Origin: Escherichia coli
Lineage (GTDB): Bacteria; Pseudomonadota; Gammaproteobacteria; Enterobacterales; Enterobacteriaceae
Direction: 5' to 3' (one strand)
DNA: 64,000 nucleotides
Assembly (NCBI RefSeq): GCF_030384885.1
Contig: NZ_CP128615.1
Position numbers and translations under genes: made by a program
Notes under the pieces: model-generated
Seen by the model: the letters and a program-made list of their open reading frames with translations, nothing else
What the model was told of the DNA's origin: nothing
Databases searched by the model: none
Shown here: positions 3 through 25,399 of the stretch, one piece after another
Numbering within the stretch: the first letter of the stretch is position 1
How the letters are laid out: each line of letters opens with the position of its first letter

Positions 3-1565
3 ATGCCTCTGATCACGCGGCTTATGCTGCAAAACTTTAAAAAGTTTCCGGAACTGGACCTGCGCTTCACTCATGACCGTAACATTCTGGTCGGGGATAA
101 TGAGTCCGGGAAAAGCACGATTCTGCTGGCCCTTGACCTTGTGCTGAGCGACAGCCGGCACCGGGTCGAGGCATTGGGTGTGGAATCGCTCCTGTCCCAG
201 TCAGCAGTCAGGCAGTTTCAGGAAGGTGAGCGCCGCGCCGATCGGTTACCCGTGCTGACAGCTGATGTTTTCCTGAGTAATGGGGGAGATCCTGACCTGA
301 ACGGCAGGCAAAATCTGGCGGGTATCGATGCGGATGGTCTCAGAATGCGCATTGCACCCATGACGGAGGAATACGGTCAGGATATACATCATGTCCTGCA
401 GCAGGATCCCGATAATTTTCCCTATGAATACTATTCCGTGCGGTTCAGCACCTTCTCCGGGGGGCATTTTGCCGGCTTCAGACGCTATCTGCGCCATCTG
501 CTGTTAGACAGTGCACGCATCGATAACGAGCACGCCGCACAGGAATATACGCGCACAGTTTACAGCGTCAATGTGCCGGTAGCCGATCGGTACCGGCTTG
601 AAAACAGTTACCGGCAACAGAAAATGCACTTCTGCACCCGGCATCTGTCAGCCATAAACGACACGCTGGATACGTATCAGTTTGGCGTGCGTTCCGGTGC
701 TAAATCAGGTCTTGAGGCGAATCTGGACATTACCGAGGACGGTATTTCCATTCGTCACCGTGGAAAAGGAAGGCAGTGCTTCATCAAAACAGAGTTTGCA
801 CTGCAGCGGCATCAGCAGCAGGGAGAGCTCCACGCACTGTTGCTTGAGGAGCCGGAGAATCATCTCAGCCATGTCAGTATGAAGAGGCTGGTTAATCAGC
901 TTGCAACTGAACGGCAGACGCAGGTGTTTATTGCCACACACAGCAGCCATATCTCATCCCGCCTCGATCTGCGTAAGGCAATCCTCCTCGGGTCTGCCCG
1001 ACCGGTACTGATGAATGAACTTTCCGCTGAGACTGCCGCCTTCTTCATGAAAGCACCGGACAATAATGTGCTGGAATTTGCGCTGGCCAGACGTGTGCTG
1101 CTCGTGGAGGGGGATGCTGAGTTTATTCTGATCGAGGCCTTTTATCGCCGCCTGTATGGCAGGTCGCCGGAGGATGACGGGGTTCACATCATCGCTATCG
1201 GCGGAACGAGTTTCCGTCGTTATCTTGAACTGGCCCGTCTTCTGGAAAATCGCGTCGCGGCCCTTCGTGATAATGACGGCAACTATCAGCAAAACTGCGA
1301 TGAACGCTATGCTGACGTGCTTTGTTCCCGCTCCCGGGTATTTGCTGATCGCGATAACACCCGATCCACATTTGAAATCTGCCTGTATCAGGATAACGCT
1401 GGTCTGTGTGATGCGCTTTTCCGCGGAACACGCCGGACACTCACGGTGCAGGAATACATGCTGGCCAATAAGGCAGAAGCAGCATTCCGGCTGTTACAGC
1501 TGCACGCCGAAGAGCTGACAGTACCTGATTATATTCAGGAGGCACTGGCATGGATAAGAGAGTGA
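3..1565 (+). CDS. OLD-family ABC-type ATPase with C-terminal Toprim-like nuclease domain (GajA-like / class 1 OLD)
   Basis: 520-aa ORF; Walker A GDNESGKST, Walker B LLEEPE, C-terminal VLLVEGDAEF...RDNDGN Toprim-like motifs; stop overlaps start of downstream helicase gene. Confidence 0.75.
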   Translation: MPLITRLMLQNFKKFPELDLRFTHDRNILVGDNESGKSTILLALDLVLSDSRHRVEALGVESLLSQSAVRQFQEGERRADRLPVLTADVFLSNGGDPDLNGRQNLAGIDADGLRMRIAPMTEEYGQDIHHVLQQDPDNFPYEYYSVRFSTFSGGHFAGFRRYLRHLLLDSARIDNEHAAQEYTRTVYSVNVPVADRYRLENSYRQQKMHFCTRHLSAINDTLDTYQFGVRSGAKSGLEANLDITEDGISIRHRGKGRQCFIKTEFALQRHQQQGELHALLLEEPENHLSHVSMKRLVNQLATERQTQVFIATHSSHISSRLDLRKAILLGSARPVLMNELSAETAAFFMKAPDNNVLEFALARRVLLVEGDAEFILIEAFYRRLYGRSPEDDGVHIIAIGGTSFRRYLELARLLENRVAALRDNDGNYQQNCDERYADVLCSRSRVFADRDNTRSTFEICLYQDNAGLCDALFRGTRRTLTVQEYMLANKAEAAFRLLQLHAEELTVPDYIQEALAWIRE

Positions 1566-2572
1566 TATTTGCGGTTGCCGGCTCGGGCAAGACCACGCTG
1601 CTGATACAGCGGTTGAGTGAGGACCGGCGGACGCTGATCCTGACCTTCACCGTGAATAATGAAGCGCATCTCCGGGCGCAGATTATCAGACGTTTTGGCT
1701 TTATCCCGGACGGGATCAGGGTGATGACCTGGTTTGAGTTTCTGCACGGTTTTTGCTTCAGGCCTTTCCTGCAGGAGCAGCTGGCATCGCGTGGGCTGAG
1801 CTTCGACCAGCCCCCACCCAGAATACCGCGCACGAATGCCCGGCATTATCAGGATCCCGCCGGACGGCTGTATCACCGGAGGCTCGCACACTTACTCACA
1901 GCCCGGGGGCTGCTGCCAGATATCCGTACCCGGCTTGCCCGTTACTACGATGAACTGCTTGTCGATGAAGTCCAGGACTTTGCCGGACATGACTTTAATT
2001 TTCTGCTGGAGCTCTGCCGCGCGGAAATCACTGTGCTCTGTTGCGGCGATTTTTATCAACATACCTTTGATACAAGCCATGACGGCAACGTTAATTCAAC
2101 GCTGCACGATGACATTACGCGATATGAGGCCCGCTTCGACGCAGCAGGTTTCACGGTTGACCGGGACACGCTCAACCGGACATGGCGTTGCTCAGCTTCA
2201 GTGTGCGAGTTTATCACCGGACAACTGAACATCCGTATCGCTGCCCATGGGATACATGCCACCCTGATTGAAACGATCACAGATGCAGAGCGCACAGCCA
2301 CCCTGCACGCCGATAATACGGTGATTAAGCTCTTCTATCGTGAACATCACCGTTACGGCTGCTATTCCATGAACTGGGGCGTCAGTAAAGGGCTCGACCA
2401 CTTTCAGGATGTCTGCATTGTGATGGGATCTTCCCACTGGAAGCTTCTGACCCGTCAGGAACTGGCAGCCCTTCCACCGTCGTCCCGTAACAGGCTGTAC
2501 GTGGCATGCTCACGGGCGCGCGGCAACATTTATTTTGTTCCCGAAATTCATCTGCGCCGATTCCGGAACTGA
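1550..2572 (+). CDS. compact UvrD/Rep-like SF1 helicase (GajB-like partner of the OLD nuclease)
   Basis: 340-aa ORF; AGSGKTT Walker A, DEVQDF motif II, YVACSRARG C-terminal motif; 16-bp overlap with upstream gene. Confidence 0.7.
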   Translation: MDKRVIFAVAGSGKTTLLIQRLSEDRRTLILTFTVNNEAHLRAQIIRRFGFIPDGIRVMTWFEFLHGFCFRPFLQEQLASRGLSFDQPPPRIPRTNARHYQDPAGRLYHRRLAHLLTARGLLPDIRTRLARYYDELLVDEVQDFAGHDFNFLLELCRAEITVLCCGDFYQHTFDTSHDGNVNSTLHDDITRYEARFDAAGFTVDRDTLNRTWRCSASVCEFITGQLNIRIAAHGIHATLIETITDAERTATLHADNTVIKLFYREHHRYGCYSMNWGVSKGLDHFQDVCIVMGSSHWKLLTRQELAALPPSSRNRLYVACSRARGNIYFVPEIHLRRFRN

Positions 2573-2699
2573 GTCAGCTGCTTCTCAGTCGGGCACAATT
2601 CAGAAATAAAGCTGTATGGCCAACGATGTCACTTCAGGCTGGAAAAGTGCGGATCCGGTTTTGCCTTTTTTCGGATCTGAGCGGGAAAAGTGAGAAACC

Positions 2700-2861
2700 A
2701 ACATAGGTGTAACATATCCATATGCCGGGCATCTGCATAGGCAAAGCATACGCATATACCTACCATCTGCATATGTAACACCTATACAAGCCGGGCTTGC
2801 AGGCATATACTTCACCTATGCGGGAATACTCCCTGGCACACTCAGCATATGAGGAAAAACC
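2700..2861 (+). promoter_or_regulatory. putative vagCD promoter/operator (inverted repeat ATAGGTGT/ACACCTAT, CATCTGCATA direct repeats)
   Basis: repeat-rich region immediately upstream of vagC; a related repeat-rich region precedes the second vagC copy at 58860-59026. Confidence 0.4.
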
Positions 2862-3092
2862 ATGCGCACAGTTTCGATATTTAAAAACGGCAATAACCGC
2901 GCCATCCGTCTGCCCCGGGACCTGGATTTTGATGGCGTCAGCGAGCTGGAGATCGTCCGGGAAGGGGACAGCATCATTCTGCGTCCCGTCCGGCCGACCT
3001 GGGGCTCGTTCGCGCAGCTGGACAGGGCCGATCCGGACTTTATGGCGGAGCGTGAGGATGTGGTCAGCGATGAAGGACGCTTTGAGCCATGA
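2862..3092 (+). CDS. vagC: VagC/VapB-type antitoxin (AbrB/SpoVT fold)
   Basis: 76-aa ORF MRTVSIFKNGNNRAIRLPRDL...; 4-bp overlap with downstream PIN toxin. Confidence 0.9.
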   Translation: MRTVSIFKNGNNRAIRLPRDLDFDGVSELEIVREGDSIILRPVRPTWGSFAQLDRADPDFMAEREDVVSDEGRFEP

Positions 3093-3505
3093 AGAAAACC
3101 TGGATGCTCGACACCAACATCTGCTCGTTCATCATGCGCGAGCAGCCGGCAGCGGTGCTGAAGCGCCTGGAGCAGGCGGTGCTGCGCGGTGATCGCATTG
3201 TGGTCTCGGCCGTGACGTATGCCGAGATGCGCTTCGGCGCCACCGGCCCGAAGGCCTCGCCGCGCCATATTCAGCTGGTCGACGCGTTCTGCGCGCGCCT
3301 CGATGCCGTCCTGCCCTGGGACCGCGCCGCGGTGGACGCCACGACGGACATCCGGGTGGCGCTGCGCCTAGCCGGGACGCCGATCGGCCCGAATGACACG
3401 GCCATTGCCGGGCACGCCATCGCGGCGGGCGCCATCCTGGTGACGAACAATGTGAGAGAGTTTGCGCGGGTCCCGGGCCTGGTGCTGGAAGACTGGGTGA
3501 AATAA
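3089..3505 (+). CDS. vagD: VagD/VapC PIN-domain toxin
   Basis: 138-aa ORF MKKTWMLDTNICSFIM... with PIN acidic residues; overlaps vagC stop. Confidence 0.9.
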   Translation: MKKTWMLDTNICSFIMREQPAAVLKRLEQAVLRGDRIVVSAVTYAEMRFGATGPKASPRHIQLVDAFCARLDAVLPWDRAAVDATTDIRVALRLAGTPIGPNDTAIAGHAIAAGAILVTNNVREFARVPGLVLEDWVK

Positions 3506-3547: not shown

Positions 3548-3608
3548 GCTTTGTTGAATAAATCGAACTTTTGCTGAGTTGAAGGATCAGATCACGCATC
3601 CTCCCGAC
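3548..3608 (+). mobile_element. IS903-like (IS5 family) terminal fragment including IR GGCTTTGTTGAATAAATC
   Basis: matches the first ~61 bp of the intact IS903-like copy at 23903; homology stops where the IS3-family element begins. Confidence 0.65.
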
Positions 3609-3708
3609 TGGATTTGCCCCTATATTTCCAGACACCTGTTATCACTTAATGGAGTGACCCCGAGCCCGTAGACAAATCTGCCCTATAGTTTGAGCATAGG
3701 AGGAGTCT

Positions 3709-3993: not shown

Positions 3994-4567
3994 AGTATCG
4001 CTTTATCAACGATCACCGTGAAATCTGGTCGATCGTTACAATGTGTCGGGTCCTTAAGGTTGCCCGTGCCGGATTTTATGTCTGGCTCCATAACCCTGTA
4101 TCTGCCGGAGAAAAGGATAACCAGCGACTGCTGGAACTCATCCGCGACTCCTATACGCTGAGTGGTGGAGTTTACGGTTATCGCAGGGTTCATGGCGATC
4201 TTCGCGAAATTGGCGAAGTGTGCAGCAGAAACCGGGTTGCCAAAATCATGAGGAAAAACAGGATTCAGGCTATACATGGTTATAAAGTGCCACGCGGGAG
4301 CCGGGGACGACCGTCACTGATAGCGCCTAATCACGTGCGGCGTGAATTTACTGTAGTGAAGCCCAATCAGGTGTGGGTCACCGACATCACCTACATCCGC
4401 ACCTGGCAGGGCTGGCTGTACCTGGCAGTGGTTATCGATCTTTTTGCCCGTAATGTGGTGGGCTGGTCGATGAAGCCGACACTGTCGCGCGAGCTGGCAC
4501 TGGATGCGCTGCTGATGGCGGTCTGGCGACGTAAACCTGAAGAAAACGTCATTGTGCACAGCGATAG

Positions 4568-5941
4568 TAATAATGCCGATGTCAGTCTTTACCACCACTT
4601 AGTTTGCCGTTTAACCAGATTGGTGTGATTACTGATGCAGTGAAGACCTTCCCGCATCCTGACTCACACAGCGATCGACCTTTTGTGTCCTGCCCTGGAC
4701 CCGTCGGTTGCCGGAAGCGCCTTCATGCGAGGCATCTCCTCACCGATGCGCGTGACTCAAGAAGGGCCTGACGGCTTGTCTCGTTACTGTCCTGTCCGGG
4801 TTATCTGTCTGGAGATTCAACTCTGTTTCCTCACAGGAGCTCTGTCATGGTTGATAAAGTTACCGAAGCTGCCGTTGTGGGTGGCGTGGATACACATAAA
4901 GATTTGCACGTTGCCGCTGTCGTAGATCAGAACAATAAAGTCCTTGGGACTCAGTATTTCTCCACAACACGACAAGGTTACCGGCAGATGCTGGCATGGA
5001 TGACCTCGTTTGGGACATTAAAGCGAATTGGTGTTGAGTGCACAGGTACCTATGGTTCCGGTTTGCTTCGTTATTTTCAGAACGCCGGGTTAGAAGTTCT
5101 TGAGGTGACTGCTCCAGACCGGATGGAGCGACGCAAACGGGGTAAAAGTGACACAATTGATGCTGAATGTGCCGCTCATGCAGCATTCTCAGGCATCAGG
5201 ACAGTTACTCCCAAAACGCGTGATGGCATGATTGAGTCCCTGCGGGTATTAAAAACTTGCCGAAAAACAGCAATATCAGCCCGCAGAGTCGCTCTCCAGA
5301 TTATCCATTCAAATATTATCTCTGCCCCGGATGAATTACGTGAACAGCTCAGAAATATGACGCGCATGCAGCTCATCAGGACCCTGGGTTCCTGGAGACC
5401 TGATGCCAGTGAATACCGCAATGTAACCAACGTTTATCGCATTTCATTAAAGTCCCTTGCCCGACGCTATCTCGAGTTACATGACGAAATCGCTGATCTG
5501 GATGTCATGATTGCGGCAATTGTCGACGAGTTGGCACCTGAGCTGATTAAACGTAATGCTATCGGATACGAAAGCGCTTCACAGTTGCTGATCACTGCCG
5601 GAGACAATCCTCAACGGTTAAGATCAGAATCAGGATTTGCGGCACTGTGTGGTGTCAGCCCGGTCCCCGTTTCTTCTGGAAAAACGAACCGTTACCGACT
5701 TAATCGTGGTGGAGATCGTGCTGCAAATAGTGCACTTCACATCATCGCCATCGGACGCTTACGAACTGACGCAAAAACAAAGGAATATGTCGCCAGGCGT
5801 GTAGCCGAAGGACATACAAAAATGGAAGCGATACGCTGTCTAAAGCGATATATCTCCCGCGAAGTTTACACGTTACTGCGCAATCAAAACAGGCGGATCA
5901 ACAGTATCCCGATAACAGCTTGACTCTTAGAAGGGCGTCCA
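4568..5941 (+). mobile_element. IS110-family insertion sequence (about 1374 bp, no obvious terminal IRs)
   Basis: precisely interrupts the IS3 orfB codon run HSD|RGSQY (2-bp junction ambiguity); carries a DEDD-type transposase gene. Confidence 0.75.
4847..5923 (+). CDS. IS110-family (DEDD) transposase
   Basis: 358-aa ORF; N-terminal GVDTHKDLHVAAV, C-terminal ...NRGGDRAANSALHIIAIGRLR... typical of IS110 family. Confidence 0.85.
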   Translation: MVDKVTEAAVVGGVDTHKDLHVAAVVDQNNKVLGTQYFSTTRQGYRQMLAWMTSFGTLKRIGVECTGTYGSGLLRYFQNAGLEVLEVTAPDRMERRKRGKSDTIDAECAAHAAFSGIRTVTPKTRDGMIESLRVLKTCRKTAISARRVALQIIHSNIISAPDELREQLRNMTRMQLIRTLGSWRPDASEYRNVTNVYRISLKSLARRYLELHDEIADLDVMIAAIVDELAPELIKRNAIGYESASQLLITAGDNPQRLRSESGFAALCGVSPVPVSSGKTNRYRLNRGGDRAANSALHIIAIGRLRTDAKTKEYVARRVAEGHTKMEAIRCLKRYISREVYTLLRNQNRRINSIPITA

Positions 5942-6325
5942 GGGCAGTCAGTATGGCAGTGATGACTGGCAGCGGTTCTGCCGGGCCAATAATCTGGTAC
6001 CGAGCATGAGCCGTCGCGGCAACTGCTGGGATAATGCAGTGGCAGAATCGTTCTTCAGTTCACTCAAAAAAGAGCGCATCAGGAAGCGGATATACAAAAC
6101 CCGGGACATGGCCCGGGCGGATATTTTCGATTATATTGAAGTGTTCTACAACCGGGCCCGGCGCCACAGTCATCTCGGCGGCGTCAGCCCGGAGGCCTTC
6201 GAAAAGGCCTCGCAGTGAGGACAGAAACTGTCTACCGGAGCGTGGTCACTCCACATTTAAAGAAACGAGCTTTGGTAAACATACCTGTAATGACTCCATA
6301 AAATGGCGCGTCAAACGACACCTAA

Positions 6326-8401
6326 TCAATTAACCCCAAGCGCCTTAAACACGGCATCGACGGGGTCTGCATAAAAGCTGATCTGGAATTTTGAGAACAA
6401 CTCAGCAGGAACCGTTGGAATATCTGAGGCTGAGGCCATTGGGAGCAAAATACGCTTTGCGCCACTGTCCATAGCTAACTGAAGACTGCCTGCAAGATCT
6501 TGAACAGGATTGACGACACCACCTAAAGTCATCTCACCCAAAACAACCATCTGCTCTTGAATCGGTCGGTTCATCAGAATTGAACAGAACGCAATTAATG
6601 CAGCGAGCGATGACTTTGTACTTGGCCCCGTATTGTGGAGCTCAACAACATGGAGGTGATACTCATGATCAGAAAACTTCGCCGACGCACTGATTCTATT
6701 CAGGTTACCTTTGAAATAATCAAAGCCAACACGCACAGCTTCTTTCGCTGCGGTATTCGAACCAAGGCCAGACACTGAGTGTTTACCAGAACCAGCCATC
6801 ATCTGGGTTTCATAGCGATATAACCCAAGCTGCCCAGTGCTTCCCTGAGTAACCAAGTGCACGACACCAGCGCGAGGTAAGCCCTCAGGAATTAGCTTGC
6901 TGCCACCTTGTTCCGGTACATTGATGAAGAATTCTTCTAATGAATCGTTATCGATGTAGCTAAAGTGCACATCAAAAAATTCCATTCCGCCAAGCTTTTT
7001 CAATTGCTCTTTGACTCTACGTCTAGTTTCCAGCGCATAGGTCAGGCAGGCTCTTACATCATCTTTTGTGTACTGTGCGTCGGGGTGTAGTAGCTTTAAC
7101 AAGCCCGAAACAGTTCTGCGTACAGCAATTACATCACGCTGATTAAGGTTATTACCGAGTTTGAAGAACTTATCGATAGCATCCGCAAAACTTCTTTTGC
7201 GCATTTCACGCATGTATTCAGCAAGATAGTCTGTGATTAATCCGTAACTATTGGTGAAAAACTCAGGACGCATCTTCGGTATTTCCCATCCAGGAATATA
7301 GGAATGGAAACGGTCAAAAAAAGCAGTGTCAATCATGGCTTCAGGAAAAGGTGCCAACAGATGACTGGTCTTCACCAGTGTCTCAACGCTTTGATTGATG
7401 TTACCGACGAATACCATGGAAGCCTTCGCTTCGATTGAATCACGACCACGGGCAAAAGACCCTGACGCCATATAATCTTTCATTATTTGGACGCCGTCTT
7501 TGTCTTTAAAGTTAATACCCGCTACTTCATCAAAGGCGACAACATCCCACATTCCGACCAACCCAACTTGGCGCGAGCTCATGTTATAGAACAAGTTCGC
7601 CACAGTTGTTTGTCCGCCCGAGACAAGCAATGAGTTTGGTGAGCACTCCTTGTAGACATGGCTTTTACCTGTCCCTCTTGGTCCGAGCTCACAAACGTTG
7701 TAGTTGTTTTCAACGAATGGGATCATACGAGTGATAAGATGCCATTTCACCCGATGCTCTAAGTTGGTTGGCTCCATACCCACGGAACGAAGCAACACAT
7801 CCATCCACTGATCGGTACTAAAATGTCTTCTGGTTGAAAACACCTCATCCATGTTCATGGACGGCATTTGTATCGGTTTTAAACTCATAATGGAGAAAGG
7901 TGATGTCTTCTGACCTTCCTCAAAGAAATACTGGACGGTAATAATGCACCAGATGCCGCCAGTTAATAATTTTTCGTTGTCTTGTACTATTTTGGTCGGT
8001 ACAAGGGCATCCTTGATACCCAGGTTCGACAACGCAGCTTCATAGACGTCTTTTTTCTGGTTGAGCTTAACGCTTACTTTGTCGATGATTTTAAACGTGC
8101 CGCGTTCACGGATCAGTGACTTCACTTTCTCCGCTTCATCTGGTCGGACATAGTTCTCAGCCAAGATTTTTTTTACATTATCAAGGCCTTGCATTACAAC
8201 TTCGTCGTCATCGGACGCACAATACATGCCTAGTAAATACTCAAGCACATAGACAGGGACGTTAGCGCCTTCTTTCAATTGCTTTGTCAGATCTTTTCGA
8301 ACGACACGGCCTTTAAAATATTGGTTGAGCAATGCGTCTAAATCGGCGCTTTGCATCTGATTTTTTTCGTCTTTATGATCTTGTGAAAAATCAGTTGTCA
8401 T
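6326..8401 (-). CDS. brxL: BREX BrxL (Lon-like protease domain protein)
   Basis: 691-aa ORF, last gene of the BREX operon; P-loop GPRGTGKSH and Lon-like C-terminus. Confidence 0.85.
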   Translation of the reverse strand: MTTDFSQDHKDEKNQMQSADLDALLNQYFKGRVVRKDLTKQLKEGANVPVYVLEYLLGMYCASDDDEVVMQGLDNVKKILAENYVRPDEAEKVKSLIRERGTFKIIDKVSVKLNQKKDVYEAALSNLGIKDALVPTKIVQDNEKLLTGGIWCIITVQYFFEEGQKTSPFSIMSLKPIQMPSMNMDEVFSTRRHFSTDQWMDVLLRSVGMEPTNLEHRVKWHLITRMIPFVENNYNVCELGPRGTGKSHVYKECSPNSLLVSGGQTTVANLFYNMSSRQVGLVGMWDVVAFDEVAGINFKDKDGVQIMKDYMASGSFARGRDSIEAKASMVFVGNINQSVETLVKTSHLLAPFPEAMIDTAFFDRFHSYIPGWEIPKMRPEFFTNSYGLITDYLAEYMREMRKRSFADAIDKFFKLGNNLNQRDVIAVRRTVSGLLKLLHPDAQYTKDDVRACLTYALETRRRVKEQLKKLGGMEFFDVHFSYIDNDSLEEFFINVPEQGGSKLIPEGLPRAGVVHLVTQGSTGQLGLYRYETQMMAGSGKHSVSGLGSNTAAKEAVRVGFDYFKGNLNRISASAKFSDHEYHLHVVELHNTGPSTKSSLAALIAFCSILMNRPIQEQMVVLGEMTLGGVVNPVQDLAGSLQLAMDSGAKRILLPMASASDIPTVPAELFSKFQISFYADPVDAVFKALGVN

Positions 8402-8417
8402 GTTTCACCTCAGCGCC

Positions 8418-11090
8418 TTAGAAAAAATCATCTTGGAATGCCAAATCAATGGTTACCGCGTATTGGCTATAACGGGTTCTCATTTCCGCATTCTCAAGAA
8501 CTAATGTGTATTGAGCGTTTCTATCGAACTGGGAGCCAATAAGCTTTAACCTAGCTTCGCGAGTACGTTCATCCATCACTTTACTCACGCTATCAAAGTT
8601 AATCGTTTCACGACTGGAGACTTCATTACCTTGTGCATCGACGATATAGACATCCAACAACCGTGCGACGAAACGCTCGCCTACAGGGTCTGTCTGAATA
8701 AATCTGACCTTGTCGATATTGTTTACTAATTTGATGGGCTGAGTGGCTGCTACAACACCTACCGGTTGTTTCTCATGTTTTGCTGCTTGTTCTTTTTGTA
8801 GCTCTCGCACATGTAGTACCGGTACGCAGACTTCCTGTAGCATCGCTCCGCCATGCACAAACTTAGCACCACCAACGAAGTGGAAGCGTTGAGCCGCTTT
8901 TGGAAGCAGGAACTCGGTATCACTTGAGCCATGAGCCGTATCGTTAATTGAGCCTTTCCAACAGGCTTCATCTGAAGGCAAGTTATTACCAACGATATAA
9001 CGTTTCTTGGCTTCTATCGCTCCAGCAGGTTTGGTTTTCAACGAGGTTTTGTCAGCCGCTACAAGTGCTTTTTGTTGGAAGAGGAAGCCATGGTCAGCAG
9101 TGATCACAACTCGGCTGCCGTTTAGACGGTTGATGACCCGCCCAACGAGGTCTTTTAGCTCTTCAATGGCACTACGACAGGCTTCAAACGTTTTCTCTTC
9201 AGTTGCTGCCTTATCACCAATCGCATCAATGGTATCGTGATAGATATAAACGACTTCTACGTCTCGAACCTTGTCACGCCCCTCCTGGTTACTCCAGCTC
9301 ATCAGTTCCTTAGAACTCACTGCCATACCACCTACTTTTTGTAGGATGGCGTTGCGGTTGTCTAGACCCTGTGAAGAAATACCATCCACATAAACAGCCG
9401 TGCCTTGCTCTGGCTGGTAACTGAGCGCCTTATGAGGCAATAATGCCGCCATCCCAAGTTGGGTATAACTCGGCAAAACGCCCAACTGCGTAGACACCTC
9501 AGCCTTAAATCGCTTCTCGTTGTTAATGATAGCGCCAAGCTCATTCGCAATTTCAAAACGCAGGGCATCAGAGATGATCACAAACACTCGTTTTGTCTGT
9601 TTCAGACTCAGTCGTGTGCGAACTTCTTTTTCATAGAAGTCATACTGGTGCGGTACGCCAGAAATCTGCCACTTTTCAAGTAATTTTTCATTGGCCAAGT
9701 GACGATCCCATGCAAGGCCAAGCTCATACAAGTACCAGTTGGTATAAATGCTTTCGACTTCGTCGTCGAGCTGACGCAGTATGTCTGCACCTTTACTCAA
9801 TACAGAGTGCACATGCTCATTGAACAAACGGTAAGCCTGGTCAAAACGATAAATGTCTGTGGTATAGGCGTCGTACATTGCTTTCGCGTTATCAAAGTGG
9901 AACCCATCCACATAGCGATTTCGCAAGTGCATTAACTCTTCAGCGTTGCGGATAGCTTCATAAATTGCGAAGTATTCTTTGCGTGACAATGTCCAGTGGC
10001 TAGAAAGACGTCTTGATAAGACCGTATCAAACTGAACCCGGTCTAGCGCTTTACTGCTATCGAGCAAATCACGAACTAAACCACGGATTATGGCCTGTTC
10101 CACAGCTTCGAACGTTTCGCATTCGATAAGCTCAACCGGATGGTACTGCCCAGCACGAGTCGAAATTTCCAACTGTTGGCTAAGCACCTTAGAGATGCTT
10201 TCGTAGTAAGCGGCGAAAGAGCGGCTGTCGCGCCAGCTCACCATAAACGCCAAGGCTGTCGCCCGGCCTGATGCGCTTTTTAGAACATTGTTAAGCAACC
10301 AATCGCGTTCAACACCTTCAATTTGGCTCCAGAATTCAGTACAGAATAATTTCAACACGAAGTCTGAGAAGGTTGGCTCTTCAACTGTATAGCCAAAACC
10401 CTCACTCAGATATGCCCAGAGTGAGGTCTCAAGATCAAACTTTCCTAGCTGGCTCCATAAAGGTTGACCAAGGCTTTCATCTTCGATATAAGCCGCATAT
10501 TCGCGTAGTAACCCAAGCAGAATGTCCGACAAAGACGCAGAATCAGCTTTTACAACCACTGCCATCATCTTTCTGTCTAACGACAGTTCGTCTTCGTTCT
10601 CAGTCACCCACTTTTTTAAACCGGCTATGCGCTGTTTATTGGCAAAAAAGCTCTGGCGCTTACGAATGTGCGTGCGAAGCGCCATTTTCGGAATACCCAG
10701 CTCATTAAGCAGCATTGAGCTGTGATCAGCAAAAAACTGCTCGCTATACAAACGCACGTCTAGCAACCAATCGCGGTCAGGCTCTGGCTCAGCGCTTGGA
10801 AAATAGATAAGGAATTTAGCTTCACGCTCATCTACTTCAATGCGTTTTTTCACTGCCAATACAGACTCATTGCCCATATTGAGGATGGTCAAATCATTTG
10901 GAAGCACCCGTGCAGTTTTATCCGCCGATTTATCGTCTGTTTCTTTTGCAAGCCCTTCTTTTGCAATAGAGAGGGCGTTAGCTAAATGCTCAAGCTCTTC
11001 AGTAAAGCTTTGCTCTGGGTCGTACCAAAACACAATGCGGCTTTGTTCAAATTTGGCAGCAACGCCTTGTGCCAGTTCACTAATCTGCAT
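8418..11090 (-). CDS. pglZ: BREX PglZ (alkaline-phosphatase superfamily)
   Basis: 890-aa ORF between pglX and brxL; N-terminal VFWYDP motif; size and position typical of PglZ. Confidence 0.85.
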   Translation of the reverse strand: MQISELAQGVAAKFEQSRIVFWYDPEQSFTEELEHLANALSIAKEGLAKETDDKSADKTARVLPNDLTILNMGNESVLAVKKRIEVDEREAKFLIYFPSAEPEPDRDWLLDVRLYSEQFFADHSSMLLNELGIPKMALRTHIRKRQSFFANKQRIAGLKKWVTENEDELSLDRKMMAVVVKADSASLSDILLGLLREYAAYIEDESLGQPLWSQLGKFDLETSLWAYLSEGFGYTVEEPTFSDFVLKLFCTEFWSQIEGVERDWLLNNVLKSASGRATALAFMVSWRDSRSFAAYYESISKVLSQQLEISTRAGQYHPVELIECETFEAVEQAIIRGLVRDLLDSSKALDRVQFDTVLSRRLSSHWTLSRKEYFAIYEAIRNAEELMHLRNRYVDGFHFDNAKAMYDAYTTDIYRFDQAYRLFNEHVHSVLSKGADILRQLDDEVESIYTNWYLYELGLAWDRHLANEKLLEKWQISGVPHQYDFYEKEVRTRLSLKQTKRVFVIISDALRFEIANELGAIINNEKRFKAEVSTQLGVLPSYTQLGMAALLPHKALSYQPEQGTAVYVDGISSQGLDNRNAILQKVGGMAVSSKELMSWSNQEGRDKVRDVEVVYIYHDTIDAIGDKAATEEKTFEACRSAIEELKDLVGRVINRLNGSRVVITADHGFLFQQKALVAADKTSLKTKPAGAIEAKKRYIVGNNLPSDEACWKGSINDTAHGSSDTEFLLPKAAQRFHFVGGAKFVHGGAMLQEVCVPVLHVRELQKEQAAKHEKQPVGVVAATQPIKLVNNIDKVRFIQTDPVGERFVARLLDVYIVDAQGNEVSSRETINFDSVSKVMDERTREARLKLIGSQFDRNAQYTLVLENAEMRTRYSQYAVTIDLAFQDDFF

Positions 11091-14000
11091 TAGTTAACCT
11101 CCGGGGCCGAACCGGTAATGGCCTTAACATCAGCCAACAGATCACCAAACTTGCCGTAATTCACTTTCACGCCATCATCCAAATCCAGTGAAATACGCAT
11201 ATCAGCGTAGTGTTTTAGCTTGTCATCAAACTCGCGTAGTTCAACCTGTTTCTTGATTAAGGCATCCAACTCTTTCTTGAAGCGGTTCGCTTCACTGGTC
11301 GAGTCTGCCGTTTCAATCTGCTTCTCAAGCTGCTCTGCATAAGCATCGTATTTGCCGAGTAACGGGGTGACATACTCGGTACGCATACGCGAAAGCGTGC
11401 CCTCGTTGTAACGGTGCAGGTAAACCAGGCACTCAAAAGCCTTCTGTTTGCCTGAGCTAAACAACCAATAAATAGGACGTTTTTTGTATGTCTTCAGGTG
11501 GTCTTTGTAGAATTGAGTCGATAAATAGCGGCGGATCGTCTCAAGAGCTGATTCTGATTTTTTGGGCTTTATGGCATTTAAGCACAGAGACTCTGCAACA
11601 AAATCGAGATTTTCTTGTAAGTGTTCTTCACCCCAAACAACTTGGACAAACTCGCGGAAACGATTGGTTGCGTCGTCCTTGAACCATTCTTGGTCGGTTA
11701 GGGGAATGATGCCATTTTCGTCGGCAGCAAAAGATTGATAAGCACCTTCGGCAACGAGTTTATCAAACCCATAATTACAAGCATGAGCGTAGACTAAGCC
11801 TTCACGATCAAGAGAGTAACGCCCCATCATGCAACCAATGGAGTAACTAATGAGTTCACAGGTTGTATCAGATTTTAACTTACTTAAATCAGTAGAATTT
11901 TCATATCGAAAAGCAGGGTTAGCAAATAATGATAGTGTTGAAATATCTATTGAAACCGGCACCGAAATTCCAAAATCATTGCATATTAAAGAATTAACTT
12001 CACTTTCCAAATTGGCTTGTTCATTAACTAGATTTAACTTCACTTCATTTAGAACCTGATAAGATTCAGCAATTTTGGCACGTTTTATTTTACACAGAGG
12101 CGAACATTCAAAGTTCCATGACGTTTCGTACATATCCCAATCAACCTTTGCGTTGGAAATTAAATCGCTCACCTTTTCAAACAATGCTTCTTTGTCAGCC
12201 TTATTGAAAATTGCCGGCAATGAGGCTATTTGACTCGTTTCATAGTTAAGCGTTGGCGAAATGATTTTTAACTGTTCCAGCACTACAGATGAGTTTAACT
12301 GAGCCAATAAGGCATATTCTTCAATTCGAGAATTAAGAAATACTGATGCACCTGCAACGTCAAATATCGCTCCTTCAGGCTGCCATCTGAACGATGGAAT
12401 TCCACTCGAAATTTTTGACCAAGTTACTGAGCTACGAAAATAAAATGCACCATTTTTCACAGTTCTAGTAGGAGACCCATACAAACTTTTAGCGTATGCA
12501 AATACCTCTTCACCTGCATTTTCCCAATTAATTACGTATTCCTGATTGCCATACCATTTTCTATATGAACCGCCTTTATTATATGGAAACCATTTGAATC
12601 CTGAGGATTCAGCTTCATCTTTAGAACTAGAGTCATACATTGAGGTGTTTACTGGAACTTCATGCCATAGCCTTAAGAATCTATTATTATCACTTGTTTG
12701 ACACCCAACTCTAGTTTTAGCAACTGACGATATTGGCGCGTCCATAAATGTATTTAATATTTCCTTGGCAACCCAATAAGCAATCGGACTCCCAGGAATC
12801 TTTTTGAAATCATCCTGAGCTGTCGCTGCAAATTCATTCTCTCTATTGAGCAATGCTTTTTGCTTTTCTTCTTCATTGCCATCTATCAGCCTATAAAAGG
12901 TAGGTTGATAATGATTGATGTGCTTATTTTGAATAATCCAGGCAGTAGTCTGTACAACCTCGCCACTAATCTGACTAAAAGCGCGTGCACCGAGGTGAGC
13001 CATAGTAATAAATGTATGGTCTTCCAATAAATTGTTTCTTAGTTGCTCATAACTCGACAAGAACATCCACGATTGCATATTGATTTGAGCATTAAATCCA
13101 TATTGAGAAAGCAATTTAAATGCTCGCTCCATAAAAATGGCAAACAAGTCTGATTTACTATTTGGGTATTGTTTCTTAGCAAACTCTTTCAAATCTGCAT
13201 TCATTCCTTTTGCTCCCATATAGGGAGGATTAGCAATCACAGCATCGTAACGAATAGATAAAACCAAAGCCTGGTGAACAAACTCAATCAATTGCTTCGC
13301 TGCCAGCTTCTGCATTGAGTCGCCTGACTCTTGTAGCTCTACTAGCGTGCTCAGGAGCTCTTTTAGCTGTTCATGGTCATCGCTTGGTACATCAATCAAT
13401 GAACCAAAGGTCTTGGCTTGAGTAAATCTTGCCAACGTTCGCTTCAGCAGTTGGTAGCGGTTGTCTGCATTGAACGAGCTTAAATCTTGCTCTTCGTCAG
13501 AGAACAGTCCTTGTGATGTGCCGCTTTGCCAACTTCCCGATAGGTTGAGTGCTTTCCATAAGGTCGGCAGATCAATATGGTTACTTTCCTGCAATGACAG
13601 TACATTGAGTCGCACGTTACGGGTAAAAATACGCTTGTCGTCATCTCTCGCCATCATCATCAGGGCAAAGCCAGATAGCTGTGCTGCACGATCATCTATG
13701 TCCAAGCCGAAGAGGTTGTTCTCCAGGATCATCTTTGGAATGTCACGAGAGCGGAAACCACGTTCTTCGTAGATGGCTTTTAGTACGTTGTAAGCTTCAA
13801 TCAGTATGTGGCCCGAGCCACAAGCGGGATCGAGTACTTTGATGGTTTCAGGTTCAATCGATTCTGGCGTAATAGCCTTTAGCTGTTGGTTAACTTCGTC
13901 AGATTGCTGCGCAGGCTCAATGTAGTATTCCATCTGGCTTTTAATGGCAGAGTCTGGGTAGGTTTGCAGCCATTGACGACCGACTGAGTTTTGTACCAGG

Positions 14001-14758
14001 TACTTTACAATCCAGTTAGGTGTAAATAGCTGAGTAGCGGCAGGAATGTCTTCACTTTTGACTACTTTTCCGATGACCTGATCTTTCTTTTCAGAAATGT
14101 AGAATTGGTAAAGCCAACCAATCACTTCGACTTGTTGCCAGTCCTCTTCAGGGATGCCGTCTACCAATCCACGCAGAATGGAGTCGGTACGCATTAGGTT
14201 GTCTGGTAGCAGAAGCTCTGTTTCATCGTCCAATGCGTCAAATAAGAAAGGCATCGCTTCATGTAGCTTATGGCACTGGCCTAACAGCAGTTCACGATAC
14301 AGCTCTTCGTCTTTGTTGCCCGCAAGCTTGAGTTCAACAATGCGAGCTCTATCTAATCCGAGTTCATCCGCAGCGTCTTGGGCATGGTCGATAATTTCAA
14401 AGCCTTTAGGGTTGTCTGGGTGCGACAAAACACGAAAACCGTGGCCTAGATAGTCATGGATTTCCATATAGCGAATAGCACACAGACGGTTGAACCAGGT
14501 ATAAGCTACTTGTTCAATAAGTTGTGCATACCCAAGTTTCTGGCTTCTGGCTACTATGCGTTTTCTGGGCTCGGCCAGTTTACCGTCAAAACTGTTACCA
14601 GCGATTTGAAGCACAGAACCTTGTAGATTCGCTTCTGCAATTTGTAGCTCGCCCTTTTTATTCGCGGTGATACCAAAGGTATTTAATCGTTTAGCTACCG
14701 CATCCATAAATTCGCGGCGCGCTTTTGGTGCGTATTTTTTAATGTTGTTCGTATTCAT
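11090..14758 (-). CDS. pglX: BREX PglX N6-adenine DNA methyltransferase
   Basis: 1222-aa ORF; SAM motif LDPACGSGHIL and catalytic NPPY (ANPPYMGAKG). Confidence 0.9.
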   Translation of the reverse strand: MNTNNIKKYAPKARREFMDAVAKRLNTFGITANKKGELQIAEANLQGSVLQIAGNSFDGKLAEPRKRIVARSQKLGYAQLIEQVAYTWFNRLCAIRYMEIHDYLGHGFRVLSHPDNPKGFEIIDHAQDAADELGLDRARIVELKLAGNKDEELYRELLLGQCHKLHEAMPFLFDALDDETELLLPDNLMRTDSILRGLVDGIPEEDWQQVEVIGWLYQFYISEKKDQVIGKVVKSEDIPAATQLFTPNWIVKYLVQNSVGRQWLQTYPDSAIKSQMEYYIEPAQQSDEVNQQLKAITPESIEPETIKVLDPACGSGHILIEAYNVLKAIYEERGFRSRDIPKMILENNLFGLDIDDRAAQLSGFALMMMARDDDKRIFTRNVRLNVLSLQESNHIDLPTLWKALNLSGSWQSGTSQGLFSDEEQDLSSFNADNRYQLLKRTLARFTQAKTFGSLIDVPSDDHEQLKELLSTLVELQESGDSMQKLAAKQLIEFVHQALVLSIRYDAVIANPPYMGAKGMNADLKEFAKKQYPNSKSDLFAIFMERAFKLLSQYGFNAQINMQSWMFLSSYEQLRNNLLEDHTFITMAHLGARAFSQISGEVVQTTAWIIQNKHINHYQPTFYRLIDGNEEEKQKALLNRENEFAATAQDDFKKIPGSPIAYWVAKEILNTFMDAPISSVAKTRVGCQTSDNNRFLRLWHEVPVNTSMYDSSSKDEAESSGFKWFPYNKGGSYRKWYGNQEYVINWENAGEEVFAYAKSLYGSPTRTVKNGAFYFRSSVTWSKISSGIPSFRWQPEGAIFDVAGASVFLNSRIEEYALLAQLNSSVVLEQLKIISPTLNYETSQIASLPAIFNKADKEALFEKVSDLISNAKVDWDMYETSWNFECSPLCKIKRAKIAESYQVLNEVKLNLVNEQANLESEVNSLICNDFGISVPVSIDISTLSLFANPAFRYENSTDLSKLKSDTTCELISYSIGCMMGRYSLDREGLVYAHACNYGFDKLVAEGAYQSFAADENGIIPLTDQEWFKDDATNRFREFVQVVWGEEHLQENLDFVAESLCLNAIKPKKSESALETIRRYLSTQFYKDHLKTYKKRPIYWLFSSGKQKAFECLVYLHRYNEGTLSRMRTEYVTPLLGKYDAYAEQLEKQIETADSTSEANRFKKELDALIKKQVELREFDDKLKHYADMRISLDLDDGVKVNYGKFGDLLADVKAITGSAPEVN

Positions 14759-14773
14759 ATGATCTTGCGCCTC

Positions 14774-16537
14774 TTATTCTGTCTCTACGCTGTTTGCGGG
14801 TTGTAATGCGGTTCTAATGCGGGCAAGCAGTGTTTCCTGACGCTCGCGGTAAAAGTCCATAAACTGGTTTAGTTGTTCAGGTAATGATGTTATGGCTTGC
14901 GATTGCAGATGTGCTTGTCTTGCATTCACATCAGGCCACTGCTGCGCATACCATTCATGGGGCATTTTTTGCCGCTTCTGGTTGTTGATTGTCCCTTCCA
15001 ACAGTTGAAGGTTTGGCAGCTTGTTAGATGCCTCGATGAGTTCATCTAGCTGTTCAGCTGGGACACCAACTTTTGCAAGCTTGTTACGCGTAAACAAACC
15101 TTTGGGGTAAATGTGGTCCACATGAAAGTGTCGTGAAAAATCGAATCCTGGGAACAACAAAGTCAACAAGGCAAAGGTACGCGGATTACCATAATCCAAC
15201 TGCGCTAGTTCACTAATTTCCTCTGGGTCAAAGCGCAACGATTTACCACGCTGTTGCATGGTCGCTTCAATTTTCGCTAGCGGGAAACCCGTATCACCCG
15301 ATTGTTTAATGTCTGAGCGAAGCATAGTAAGCAGGGTATCCAAACCACTTCCCCAGATGCCTGACGCTTTCAACAACGACCTAATGAGCCAGTTTCTGAT
15401 GCATTCTCTATCGACCGCATATTCAACCCTAGAAAGGTAGCTTGCCGTTAACTTTCGGTGGTGCAGGTAATAGGCTAACGGGAGGATGGCACTTGTTGCT
15501 CTGAGGTTTTGTGCATTAAAACCAAAACTTGCCAGCAACTGCATTGAGAGCAATAACGCATCACGAATTGGCGTCCAGTTCTTTTCGAGAATCGCCATAT
15601 TTTCCTTGTTAAAGTTCTCAACCTTAAAGCCCACGCTACCGATGTCAGAGAGCATTAAGCCTGCTTTTAAAACGAGATCTTTTGATACGTTGAATCCATC
15701 ACCAACACGGTTCATCTCATCCACTAAGGCATGAATTTCTTCACGGGCATCTAACGAGCTCCACTGCGCTACGGCTATTGAAAGTAGTAAGTCTGAGTAG
15801 GACAAAGTAGTGCCGCCGCTATTCATGCGGATAAAGATATTCAGAACACGTTCAAGGCTCTGATCACTTTCTTCGTAAAACGAAATCTTATCTTTGTCAT
15901 GGATAGTTCGATACAAGTGACGAAGAGTTGAGCGAGCCTCTTTGCGTTGCTCCGAGCTCAACCTAGCATCATCAGCAACTTCATCGATAAGTGCATCTTC
16001 TTCCTCTTCCATGATCCGGCCTACACGGAACCAGTATTGTTCAGATGCATCCAAAGAGGCTTTATCGTCGGTTAGGAACTCAAAGTCATACATCGACCCA
16101 GTTTCTAAGTCGGGCTGGCTTAACAGATTTAAGTGAAGCCTGCGCACTGGGAAGGCGTCATCATTGCTCCACCATTTACCTGTCAGCTTCCACGCAAATG
16201 AGCCGCGTAGGCCGATGTTCAAAGCGGTAATCCGCTGCTGTCCATCTAGGACGGCAATGAACTCACGCTCTGGTAACTGAGTGACATTTTCACAATGGTA
16301 GTTATCTCGCTCATGGTAATGCTGCATGAACTGATAAAACTGATAGCTATGCCGGTTCTCTGGTTTTATCTTCCAGAATAGAAAGGTCCCAAACGGGTAA
16401 CCTTGCAACAGGCTATCAAATAGACGACAGATCTGTTCTGGTCGCCATACAAACTCTCGCTGGATGGCCGGTAACAGGTATTCCTGCTCAGCAACCTTGT
16501 CGAGTAATGATCTTATTGTTCCACCCGCTTGATACAT
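14774..16537 (-). CDS. GmrSD-family type IV restriction endonuclease (DUF262 + DUF1524; BrxU-like) embedded in BREX locus
   Basis: 587-aa ORF; N-terminal IQREFVW and DGQQR (DUF262/ParB-like) motifs, C-terminal HxxH-type HFHVDHIYPK (DUF1524 His-Me finger). Confidence 0.8.
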   Translation of the reverse strand: MYQAGGTIRSLLDKVAEQEYLLPAIQREFVWRPEQICRLFDSLLQGYPFGTFLFWKIKPENRHSYQFYQFMQHYHERDNYHCENVTQLPEREFIAVLDGQQRITALNIGLRGSFAWKLTGKWWSNDDAFPVRRLHLNLLSQPDLETGSMYDFEFLTDDKASLDASEQYWFRVGRIMEEEEDALIDEVADDARLSSEQRKEARSTLRHLYRTIHDKDKISFYEESDQSLERVLNIFIRMNSGGTTLSYSDLLLSIAVAQWSSLDAREEIHALVDEMNRVGDGFNVSKDLVLKAGLMLSDIGSVGFKVENFNKENMAILEKNWTPIRDALLLSMQLLASFGFNAQNLRATSAILPLAYYLHHRKLTASYLSRVEYAVDRECIRNWLIRSLLKASGIWGSGLDTLLTMLRSDIKQSGDTGFPLAKIEATMQQRGKSLRFDPEEISELAQLDYGNPRTFALLTLLFPGFDFSRHFHVDHIYPKGLFTRNKLAKVGVPAEQLDELIEASNKLPNLQLLEGTINNQKRQKMPHEWYAQQWPDVNARQAHLQSQAITSLPEQLNQFMDFYRERQETLLARIRTALQPANSVETE

Positions 16538-16553
16538 AGTTATCCGTTGCCTC

Positions 16554-20231: not shown

Positions 20232-20249
20232 TCGGGAGGCTCCCTGCTC

Positions 20250-21430: not shown

Positions 21431-21439
21431 AAATTCATC

Positions 21440-22366: not shown

Positions 22367-22685
22367 TTAAAACTAGGAAGCCATCGATTGAATGCCATCA
22401 AGCAACCTACTTTTTTTCATTAGGTATCATAGTATCAACAAGTCGTCTTGTTGGCTATAAAAATTGGCTTGACGTTGTTCGAATGTTTCTTTTCTGGCCT
22501 TGATAGAAGCTCACGCTGGAATGCCAACTGACGCAATTCATTCTCTCGAACACGCCTAGCAACTTCTGCCTGGGCTGGTAGCTGATCTTGACCCTCCATC
22601 TCCGAACAGCTTTTGTATCTTAAGTTAACGATGTCCGCTGCCGCCGGTATTCCCTCGGGGAGTGATATCCCAGCGCGCTGTGCGG

Positions 22686-25376: not shown

Positions 25377-25399
25377 CGACAGACCAGAAGCGGGAAGCC

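Follow-up and report, generated by a model that had tools for sequence, protein, structure and literature searches.

A plasmid resolution site beside a candidate VagC operator: diverged vagCD upstream regions probably brought together by an IncF-IncR fusion at rfsF

Why should two almost identical copies of an antitoxin gene on one plasmid stand behind the same hairpin and the same kind of repeats, in sequence that has otherwise clearly diverged? The question arises in a 64,000-nucleotide stretch of Escherichia coli DNA from contig NZ_CP128615.1 (hereafter the window), where the intergenic segment 2573-2861, bounded by a gene for a UvrD-like protein (1550-2572) and by the antitoxin gene vagC (2862-3092), carries the palindrome GATCCG-N14-CGGATC followed by a series of short repeats; a related segment precedes a second vagC. 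We propose that the palindrome is the core of an rfsF recombination site, that the two copies arose by site-specific fusion of an IncF-type and an IncR plasmid, and that the repeats form a 17-bp-unit promoter-operator of the vagCD toxin-antitoxin operon. Taken jointly, these three statements offer the best explanation of the locus, one that we consider likely.

The features that the original prediction described are confirmed at the coordinates given. GATCCG-N14-CGGATC has exactly two matches in the whole window (2652-2677 and 58820-58845), against 0.03 expected, and none of 100 shuffled sequences gave two. Directly after the palindrome copy 1 reads GAGCGGGAAAAGTGAGAAA and copy 2 GGTGGAGAAATGAGAAAA, and the direct repeat CATCTGCATA is found twice per copy with no further exact match in the window. 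Pairwise alignment of the upstream regions bears out that they are not identical: the left flanks are unrelated (47% identity), 19 of 26 positions agree in the palindromic core, and identity from core to ATG is 72% with gaps counted (about 81% over aligned columns only), whereas vagC agrees at 230 of 231 positions and the retained 5' part of vagD at 95 of 96. The span proposed for the second copy, 58790-59026, is correct at its vagC end, as the ATG follows at 59027, but homology begins only at the hairpin.

Is the palindrome a control element of vagC, as had been assumed? In F (NC_002483, 45923-45948) a sequence with the same arms as the window sites, GATCCGAAAACCCCAAGTTACGGATC, lies upstream of ccdA-ccdB-resD, and in the plasmid pSLT a palindrome with these arms lies upstream of ccdAB..rsdB. 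Because it thus precedes the resD/rsdB operon in two plasmids devoid of vagCD, and with flanks that are exchanged inside the palindrome itself, the assumption of a vagC control element has to be given up. The virulence plasmid of Salmonella Dublin carries the same palindrome between the rsd operon and vagC. Homology of RepFIA to F starts at nucleotide 45922 and opens with rfsF sites (PMC4398462); by definition such sites consist of inverted repeats, imperfect and 10-14 bp long, that enclose a spacer of 6-8 bp (PMC5587640). Copy 2, with arms CAGATCCGGAA and TTTCGGATCTG and 8 nt between them, fits this definition. Furthermore, vagCD of IncR plasmids adjoins rfsF, the target of ResD, and homology among IncR plasmids often stops there (PMC9412624). 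Judged by sequence, then, GATCCG-N14-CGGATC is a core-type site for a tyrosine recombinase of the ResD/Rsd kind, related to Cre, and not a regulatory hairpin of vagC. The two rfsF-type cores of the window read in direct orientation on the plus strand, 56,168 bp apart; that of copy 1 has arms GATCCGG... and ...TTTTCGGATC around a variable centre.

A survey of loci encoding VagC relatives agrees with this assignment. The full hairpin is present in 18 of 80 such loci, and a ResD homologue lies upstream in 9 of these 18 versus none of the 62 hairpin-free loci (Fisher P 2e-7). Viewed from the resD side, all sites combine AGATCCG and CGGATCT arms with a conserved flank on that side and a purine-rich box on the far side, a pattern also seen in F and in a second site of an IncFIB/FIC plasmid, neither of which is followed by vagC. 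When about 35 sites are compared, the four nucleotides after GATCCG track the left flank and subsequent bases track the right flank. In database searches, similarity to the right flank of copy 1 sets in at 2647-2662, and for IncR plasmids at 2652 or 2662.

Could the palindrome act instead as a structure, either a gajB terminator or a vagC leader, and the repeats as iterons or a partition centromere? The palindrome could form a stem of 8-11 bp, and tandem repeats of about 17 bp are superficially iteron-like. However, neither strand has a T-tract, no terminator is called at the hairpin, fold z-scores range from -0.3 to -2.5, and the minimum free energy structure of copy 1 bypasses the arms. The arms are invariant, save for two single changes (GATCCA and GTTCCG) that are uncompensated, and no credible Rfam match was found. 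As for iterons, those of IncR (54124-54502) and parAB lie elsewhere, and the repeats track VagC rather than Rep or Par genes. We find this possibility barely credible. A terminator or structured RNA was accordingly rejected for want of a T-tract, of unusual fold energies, of covariation and of a credible Rfam family; iterons or a centromere were rejected as well, the divergent genes being the resD operon and not par, and the array following VagC on chromosomes and on many plasmid types.

The purine-rich box lies immediately to the right of each core (2678-2701, TGAGCGGGAAAAGTGAGAAACCAA; 58846-58869, TGCGGTGGAGAAATGAGAAAACAG; both plus strand). Similar boxes stand to the right of vagC-free rfsF sites, in F (TCCGGAGAAATAAGAAGAGG), at 28730 in the host-type plasmid discussed below (TCTGCGAGAAGTGAAAGAAAC) and at 467 in locus L038. 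By these comparisons, the box appears to travel with rfsF and not with vagC; it is possibly a putative extended binding region for the recombinase or for an accessory protein. On the opposite side, about 200 bp into the resD flank of rfsF, we observed a conserved half-site, GATCCGACTTT, in IncR, F, pSLT and the S. Dublin plasmid (window 58628-58639; F, L003, 2131-2142, reverse; pSLT, L004, about 1776-1790; L005, about 23155-23170). In the Salmonella plasmids its sequence is GATCCGATTTT. Conserved blocks, GTGGTACACTTCCGGAAA among them, lie on its flanks, and it may be the second rfsF site of PMC4398462 or an accessory ResD site. Each core, at 2652-2677 and at 58820-58845, also contains two Dam methylation sites (GATC), one in each arm.

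If the palindromes are recombination sites, what brought two of them into one plasmid? About ten IncFIB/FIC plasmids of E. coli and Shigella hold window segments 1-2651 and 60900-64000 at 99.9% identity. In those plasmids the two segments are spaced by 2,081 bp, in the window by 58,249 bp. The excess of 56,168 bp is the exact distance between the two hairpins (58820 minus 2652). The intervening DNA has its own counterpart: the IncR plasmid NZ_CP024857.1, compared with window 24000-42500 left out, is 100% identical to window 2652-24000 and, beyond its own rfsF, agrees with the resD-side DNA that precedes copy 2. The order of elements in the empty site of the IncFIB/FIC, or host-type, plasmid is Gabija, rfsF and a vagC that we term variant B; in the IncR plasmid it is resD, rfsF and vagCD of variant A.

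The cores themselves record the exchange. The host empty-site core reads GATCCGGTTT TG GTGGTTTTCGGATC and the IncR core GATCCGGAAC TG CCTTTTTTCGGATC. Copy 1 of the window reads GATCCGGTTT TG CCTTTTTTCGGATC (GTTT-TG-CCTT) and copy 2 reads GATCCGGAAC TG GTGGTTTTCGGATC (GAAC-TG-GTGG). The window cores are thus exact reciprocal products, with the exchange confined to the shared TG (2662-2663 and 58830-58831): the first junction is host plasmid up to and including 2661 and IncR plasmid from 2664 on, and at the second the left part is IncR, on the resD side, and the right part host plasmid. This reciprocal exchange within TG leads us to read the window as part of an IncF-type plasmid whose rfsF has taken up an IncR plasmid, itself opened at rfsF. 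Comparison with the parental types accordingly assigns the intact copy 1 vagCD (variant A) to the incoming IncR plasmid, and copy 2 (variant B, its vagD already cut by an insertion sequence (IS)) to the host plasmid. Hairpin and repeats would then occur twice in diverged sequence because two different parent plasmids fused at rfsF.

The sequence of events may be pictured as follows. One parent would have been an IncFIB/FIC-type plasmid with gajA-gajB, rfsF and vagC of variant B with the IS-cut vagD; the other, a 56,168-bp IncR plasmid with the resD operon, rfsF and vagCD of variant A. A crossover within TG, close to where the central region begins on the left, would yield the order Gabija, rfsF, vagCD-A, the IncR backbone, resD, rfsF and vagC-B. 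Should this reading be correct, excision of the 56,168-bp segment would restore GATCCGGTTTTGGTGGTTTTCGGATC. On a reading of the site with 9-bp arms and a centre of 8 bp, the first base of the centre immediately precedes the junction. The corresponding place in loxP, within the centre at its left end, is where Cre cuts the top strand, and by this analogy we infer a Cre-like cleavage position in rfsF. The junction between Gabija and variant A was not found in PLSDB or among complete E. coli genomes, where the best full-length matches to the window junction are the empty site, at 90.9-95% identity.

A fusion could also have come about by RecA-dependent recombination in the shared vagCD genes or by IS-mediated cointegration. 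The parents do share about 320 bp of vagC-vagD at 99% identity, and fusions of IncR plasmids are ascribed mainly to IS26 or homologous recombination, with rfsF-resD invoked only in general terms (PMC12310702). However, the upstream variants have swapped partners, so the crossover must precede the diverged 180 bp and lie in the 26-mer, of which the parents have just 7 + 2 + 12 bp in common. No IS or target duplication is present at either junction, and the inserted length equals the core-to-core distance exactly. We therefore regard a RecA or IS origin as very unlikely.

There remains the question of the repeats that follow the purine box. For the counts below, a hexamer is any sequence within one mismatch of CATATG, and a unit is CATATG-N5-CATATG with one mismatch allowed per hexamer. 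The array of copy 1 (2702-2820, plus strand) comprises seven abutting 17-bp positions of the form hexamer-N5-hexamer, starting at 2702, 2719, 2736, 2753, 2770, 2787 and 2804. Six of the seven are CATATG-N5-CATATG-like, and the degenerate one, at 2787, forms the spacer between the -35 and -10 elements of a predicted promoter. The array of copy 2 (58870-58988, plus strand) has seven positions in the same register, the sixth again degenerate. Segment 2700-2861 contains 12 hexamers versus 0.73 expected from their density in the window (Poisson P 2.5e-11), and the second copy contains 11. All hexamers fall in phase 0 or 11 modulo 17, except that at 2846 in the copy 1 leader. Elsewhere in the window no stretch has at least six hexamers per 162 bp, the sole comparable cluster being the one upstream of the second vagC.

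Conservation between the copies is concentrated in the hexamers: 67 of 72 hexamer positions are identical (93%) versus 15 of 30 spacer positions (50%; Fisher P 2.8e-6), the footprint expected of protein contacts at hexamers. This supports, at the level of sequence, the earlier suggestion of two operator variants for one antitoxin, with hexamers kept and spacers differing, and both variants should bind the same antitoxin. The inverted repeat noted previously, ATAGGTGT (2703-2710) and ACACCTAT (2779-2786), is real in copy 1; in copy 2 the place of its left arm reads GATATGCG. With that arm not conserved and the palindromic hexamers sufficient to explain the repeat, we rejected it as a functional element and regard it as a by-product of the near-palindromic hexamer array.

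Does the array belong to VagC or to the adjacent recombination site? A unit is found within 150 bp upstream in 70 of 79 loci with VagC relatives (64-97% identity), compared with 9 of 1903 control windows drawn from the same 79 loci (0.47%). Among loci without a trace of rfsF, 43 of 50 have the unit. These include representatives of Vibrio, Shewanella, Photobacterium, Vreelandella, Pseudomonas and Yersinia, and in these six genera one or two units lie immediately around a -10-like hexamer. Conversely, F and pSLT possess rfsF and ResD but no such repeats, and in copy 1 the repeats are present while an adjacent resD is absent. The S. Dublin plasmid has seven or eight units between rfsF and vagC. 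As the unit tracks VagC independently of rfsF, the array is most likely an operator of VagC, an AbrB-type VapB; by this distribution we propose that it is very probably the promoter-operator of vagCD.

The alternative that the 17-bp repeats are accessory resolution sites of ResD/Rsd has a precedent of sorts. In 1991 Krause and Guiney reportedly described, in the crs region of pSDL2, eight incomplete 17-bp direct repeats beside rfsF-like inverted repeats; our text searches of the literature for 17-bp repeats found no description. The repeats also abut the core in IncR and in the S. Dublin plasmid. They are missing, however, from F and pSLT despite rfsF and ResD, and they follow chromosomal VagC homologues where rfsF and ResD are lacking (the 43 of 50 loci above). 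It is the resD side that holds conserved sequence of accessory appearance, with the half-site GATCCGACTTT at a distance of about 200 bp, and the hexamers resemble the operator half-sites of Shigella VapBC. Accessory resolution sites are, in our judgment, distinctly unlikely, although, given that account of crs, the array may contribute to recombination. If the account of crs is accurate, it suggests that its 17-bp repeats would belong to the neighbouring vagC promoter.

The number of units differs between plasmids. In two Citrobacter plasmids (L001, 5279-5425; L090, about 4279-4420) the arrays are exactly 34 bp, or two units, shorter than the window copies, and the array of L035 is longer (240 bp, 12 hexamers). 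Such changes by whole units are what slippage or unequal exchange would produce.

How might the array control vagCD? A consensus scan predicts a sigma-70 promoter at 2783-2811 on the plus strand, with -35 TATACA (2783-2788), a 17-bp spacer and -10 TATACT (2806-2811), and its equivalent in copy 2 at 58951-58979 (plus strand; -35 58951-58956, -10 58974-58979). The corresponding motif, CTATACA-N16-CATATACT, is conserved in related loci. The predicted promoter is embedded in units 5 and 7, units 2770-2786 and 2804-2820 overlapping its -35 and -10 elements, respectively. Between promoter and ATG, copy 1 has an extra CATATG hexamer (2846-2851), absent from copy 2, and a Shine-Dalgarno-like AGGAAA (2852-2857).

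Experiments on enteric VapBC systems provide a model. The Shigella operator oligonucleotides used in electrophoretic mobility shift assays contain GATATAC...ACATATCC and GTATATCC...ACATATCC half-sites over the -10 and -35 elements, and the complex is a VapB4C4 octamer spanning adjacent major grooves (PMC3384007). The Salmonella system shows conditional cooperativity, with toxin-dependent derepression (PMC3378870). The two hexamers of a vagCD unit, 11 bp apart, would likewise face adjacent major grooves on the same side of the helix. By analogy with Shigella and Salmonella VapBC, an AbrB-type VagC dimer would read each hexamer and a VagD dimer would bridge two VagC dimers, so that one VagC4D4 octamer would occupy each 17-bp unit. 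Both binding to the array and this stoichiometry are carried over from the enteric complexes. Units over -35 and -10 would then bring about autorepression, probably relieved by excess toxin.

The proteins are consistent with such a scheme. VagC matches PF04014 (MazE/AbrB; E 4.5e-9) and VagD matches PF01850 (PIN; E 1.3e-14). Relatives of solved structure include VapB of 6IFM, 3ZVK and 3TND; the VapBC complexes represented are those of enteric bacteria, of Rickettsia and of Haemophilus. The nearest match of VagD is tRNA(fMet)-specific VapC (E 1.7e-29). VagC and its relatives hardly vary in the N-terminal, DNA-binding half. In copy 1 both genes are intact, vagC (2862-3092, plus strand, 76 residues, AbrB/MazE-type) and vagD (3089-3505, plus strand, 138 residues, PIN toxin) overlapping by ATGA (3089-3092). 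In copy 2, vagC (59027-59257, plus strand) is followed by only the first 96 nt of vagD (59254-59349, plus strand), where an IS21-family element interrupts the gene. NZ_CP055056.1, an empty-site plasmid, has vagD cut at an identical place; therefore, the cut predates the fusion. In window 59350-60833 the element follows codon 32 of vagD and includes an istB-like gene (59408-60195, in two open reading frame (ORF) pieces) and an istA-like gene from 60192.

Why then are the coding sequences so similar behind diverged upstream regions? Divergence switches within a few bases of the vagC ATG. At other loci, identity to copy 1 is 69-88% upstream where it is 82-91% in coding sequence, so that the pairing of 81% upstream with 99.4% in coding sequence is exceptional and implies earlier recombination. 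Mosaics are seen elsewhere: L006 resembles copy 1 upstream and over most of vagC while its vagD has diverged, L012 switches at about 2800, and in L090 the array is itself a chimera. At the population level, sequence comparison thus makes it evident that vagCD alleles have undergone older homologous recombination. Yet both parent-like plasmids encode an identical VagC (WP_001261276.1) behind their own upstream variants, so homogenisation predates the fusion and gene conversion within this plasmid is unnecessary. The gene conversion suggested originally therefore holds in part: it is not required here, where the parental types already shared VagC, but older allele recombination did take place in the population.

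These data also bear on the view that the whole of 2573-2861, hairpin included, is a single vagCD regulatory region, with gene conversion between the copies in this plasmid. The hairpin does adjoin the repeats in both copies, and the abrupt switch at the ATG and the mosaic alleles elsewhere speak in its favour. On the other hand, the hairpin occurs in F, in pSLT and at the second host-type site, all without vagCD, and most VagC homologues lack it. The parent-like plasmids, moreover, carry the same VagC behind their own variants, at 99.9-100% identity to the window copies. A single converted regulatory region is thus improbable.

Which enzyme could have joined the two plasmids? Facing the second rfsF, on the minus strand, lies the resD operon of IncR, composed of orf116 (58106-58456), orf247 (57312-58055) and resD (57315-56540), which has a Phage_integrase domain. 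The surroundings of copy 2 are IncR backbone, with repB, resD and two small ORFs on the minus strand and then the hairpin. This resD is frameshifted: compared with the intact resD of NZ_CP024857.1, it carries a 2-bp TG insertion at 56710-56711, tblastn matches are split, and the frame is lost after ...HTFRHSYAMHM, with removal of about 57 C-terminal residues including the conserved ...STEVYTKV.... The insertion could stabilise the cointegrate or be an assembly error. Copy 1 adjoins Gabija instead of resD, while copy 2 adjoins the frameshifted gene. The host-type plasmid NZ_CP055056.1 has an F-type ResD (97% identical to that of F, 84% to that of IncR). It also has a second rfsF, GATCCGGAACCAGGAGTTTTCGGATC (L092, 28730), beside its own ccdAB-resD and in direct orientation with the Gabija-linked site, so that two direct rfsF sites with different centres coexist stably on this plasmid. 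An explanation in which the resD frameshift trapped the cointegrate is weakened by this intact F-type ResD and by the two direct sites.

Several points weigh against the joint explanation by rfsF, IncF-IncR fusion and VagC operator. The central regions of the parents share only TG, while most tyrosine recombinases need homology across the whole overlap. The event was therefore either rare or a single strand exchange, which we presume would have been followed by replication. The parent-like plasmids are close relatives (99.2-100%) of the parents and not the parents themselves. The IncR resD of the window is frameshifted and the host-type plasmid supplies an F-type ResD together with one more rfsF; as a result, no one enzyme can be assigned as catalyst of the fusion. 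On the operator side, seven units are far above the two operators known for VapBC, and the predicted promoter matches the consensus at 9 of 12 positions.

Neither element of the locus represents a new kind; the site belongs with rfsF/ResD and the array, as proposed, with VapBC-type operators. With rfsF/ResD of F and crs/Rsd of Salmonella, the window sites share the GATCCG...CGGATC arms, the 14-nt interval and the place upstream of the resD operon, as well as the far-side purine box and the conserved resD-side sequence with a second half-site. Like other rfsF sites they mark a point of exchange of flanking modules (PMC4398462, PMC9412624, PMC8004404), although they differ in being inter-plasmid hybrids whose partner centres agree only in TG, and in that copy 1 lacks a neighbouring resD while that of copy 2 is frameshifted. 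Cre/loxP and FLP/FRT offer a more distant comparison. There, too, inverted recombinase-binding arms surround an asymmetric centre of about 8 bp and integration generates direct hybrid sites, whereas the window arms are shorter and less symmetric, the partner centres are heterologous, and the cleavage position is deduced from natural recombinants.

The array resembles the operators of Shigella pMYSH6000 and vapO1/vapO2 of Salmonella LT2, which also pair an AbrB/SpoVT-type antitoxin with a PIN toxin and have ATAT-core half-sites about one helical turn apart over -10 and -35, with a hetero-octamer expected per site. The differences lie in the CATATG hexamer and its exact 11-bp spacing, in the six good abutting units that reach about 85 bp upstream of -35 versus two separate operators, in the variation of unit number between plasmids by exact 34-bp deletions, and in the distance of VagC from the solved VapBs (E 1e-7 to 1e-3). 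What is new is an explicit candidate VagC operator motif, CATATG-N5-CATATG, with phylogenetic support, and a nucleotide-level reconstruction of a putative rfsF-mediated IncF-IncR fusion for which both parental types were found.

Fusions of IncR and IncF plasmids spread resistance and virulence genes, and here one can be traced to the plasmid's own resolution site. An exchange confined to two bases provides a testable position for strand exchange by ResD, and hybrid rfsF pairs could be used as marks of such fusions in plasmid sequences. The vagCD operon is among the commonest plasmid toxin-antitoxin systems (more than 5,000 PLSDB records matched), and the operator motif can be tested directly.

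May vagCD itself, with its array, be a mobile rfsF module that carries the right half of the site and is moved between replicons by ResD-family recombinases, the VagC- or VagCD-bound array serving as an architectural accessory that biases or gates ResD recombination? The hints are the expansion of the array in rfsF-linked forms, as arrays of five to eight abutting units occur only in rfsF-linked plasmid forms, a right arm that persists on its own, sites on both sides of vagCD, and the 17-bp repeats reportedly listed for crs in 1991. We consider this idea speculative and rather unlikely; if true, it would link the state of the toxin-antitoxin pair to multimer resolution or plasmid fusion. In Acinetobacter, pdif modules place toxin-antitoxin and accessory genes beside short tyrosine-recombinase sites in many plasmid backbones. 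They differ in using XerC/D and another site, and here few loci (L014, L024) have sites on both sides of vagCD.

In these loci (L014, 319 and 2016; L024, 3927), rfsF-type sites flank the vagCD module within about 1.7 kb, and in L024 the second site is followed by another operator-like array; such double sites give hints of cassette-like or tandem modules. At about 10-11 loci upstream of vagC homologues, the right arm TTTTCGGATC(TG) is kept while the left arm is degenerate or absent (L010, L013, L022, L031, L032, L038, L042, L043, L066 and, in Vibrio sonorensis, L070). These cases would fit a vagCD-bearing element that integrated at secondary sites, or a left arm that decayed where ResD is missing.

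On the left side of the first junction, a Gabija-type system (3-2572) directly abuts the recombination site. It consists of gajA (3-1565, plus strand; OLD-family ATPase/Toprim nuclease; PADLOC GajA, E 1.5e-101) and gajB (1550-2572, plus strand; UvrD-like helicase; PADLOC GajB, E 1.7e-47), with Pfam domains AAA_15, OLD-like TOPRIM and UvrD-helicase. The region is 99.9% identical to IncFIB/FIC plasmids of E. coli and Shigella; gajA-gajB is the left flank of the host plasmid adjoining the recombination site, outside vagCD control. Just past the left end of the window, a vapBC homologue about 85% identical to vagD lies immediately upstream of gajA (L091, 1-438, from NZ_CP055056.1). In F, the pif phage-exclusion genes abut rfsF opposite resD, in the place held here by vagCD, and in L006 a gene for a RES-domain toxin stands to the left of the site, like Gabija. 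Variable gene sets of IncI1 plasmids also end at rfsF (PMC8004404). The flanks of rfsF thus seem to collect defence and addiction cargo.

To the right of copy 1, directly 3' of vagD (window 3548-3610), we found GGCTTTGTTGAATAAATCGAACTTTTGCTGAG, which we take to be a terminal inverted repeat of IS903/IS102 type, and an IS3-family element starts at about 3610. A delta-IS102/IS2/ISEc15 locus has been described beside IncR vagCD, and the window from 3548-3610 onward matches it (PMC9412624). Further along, at about 5000-24000, matching IncR plasmids are annotated with a BREX type 1 cluster (brxC, pglX, pglZ, brxL), a DUF262 protein and IS elements. Finally, just upstream of repB a tandem array at 54124-54502 shows repeated peptide motifs in its ORFs and self-matches shifted by multiples of 36 bp. 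The iterons of IncR are 36 bp long (PMC9412624), and by its position this array is the IncR iteron cluster, unrelated to the 17-bp repeats.

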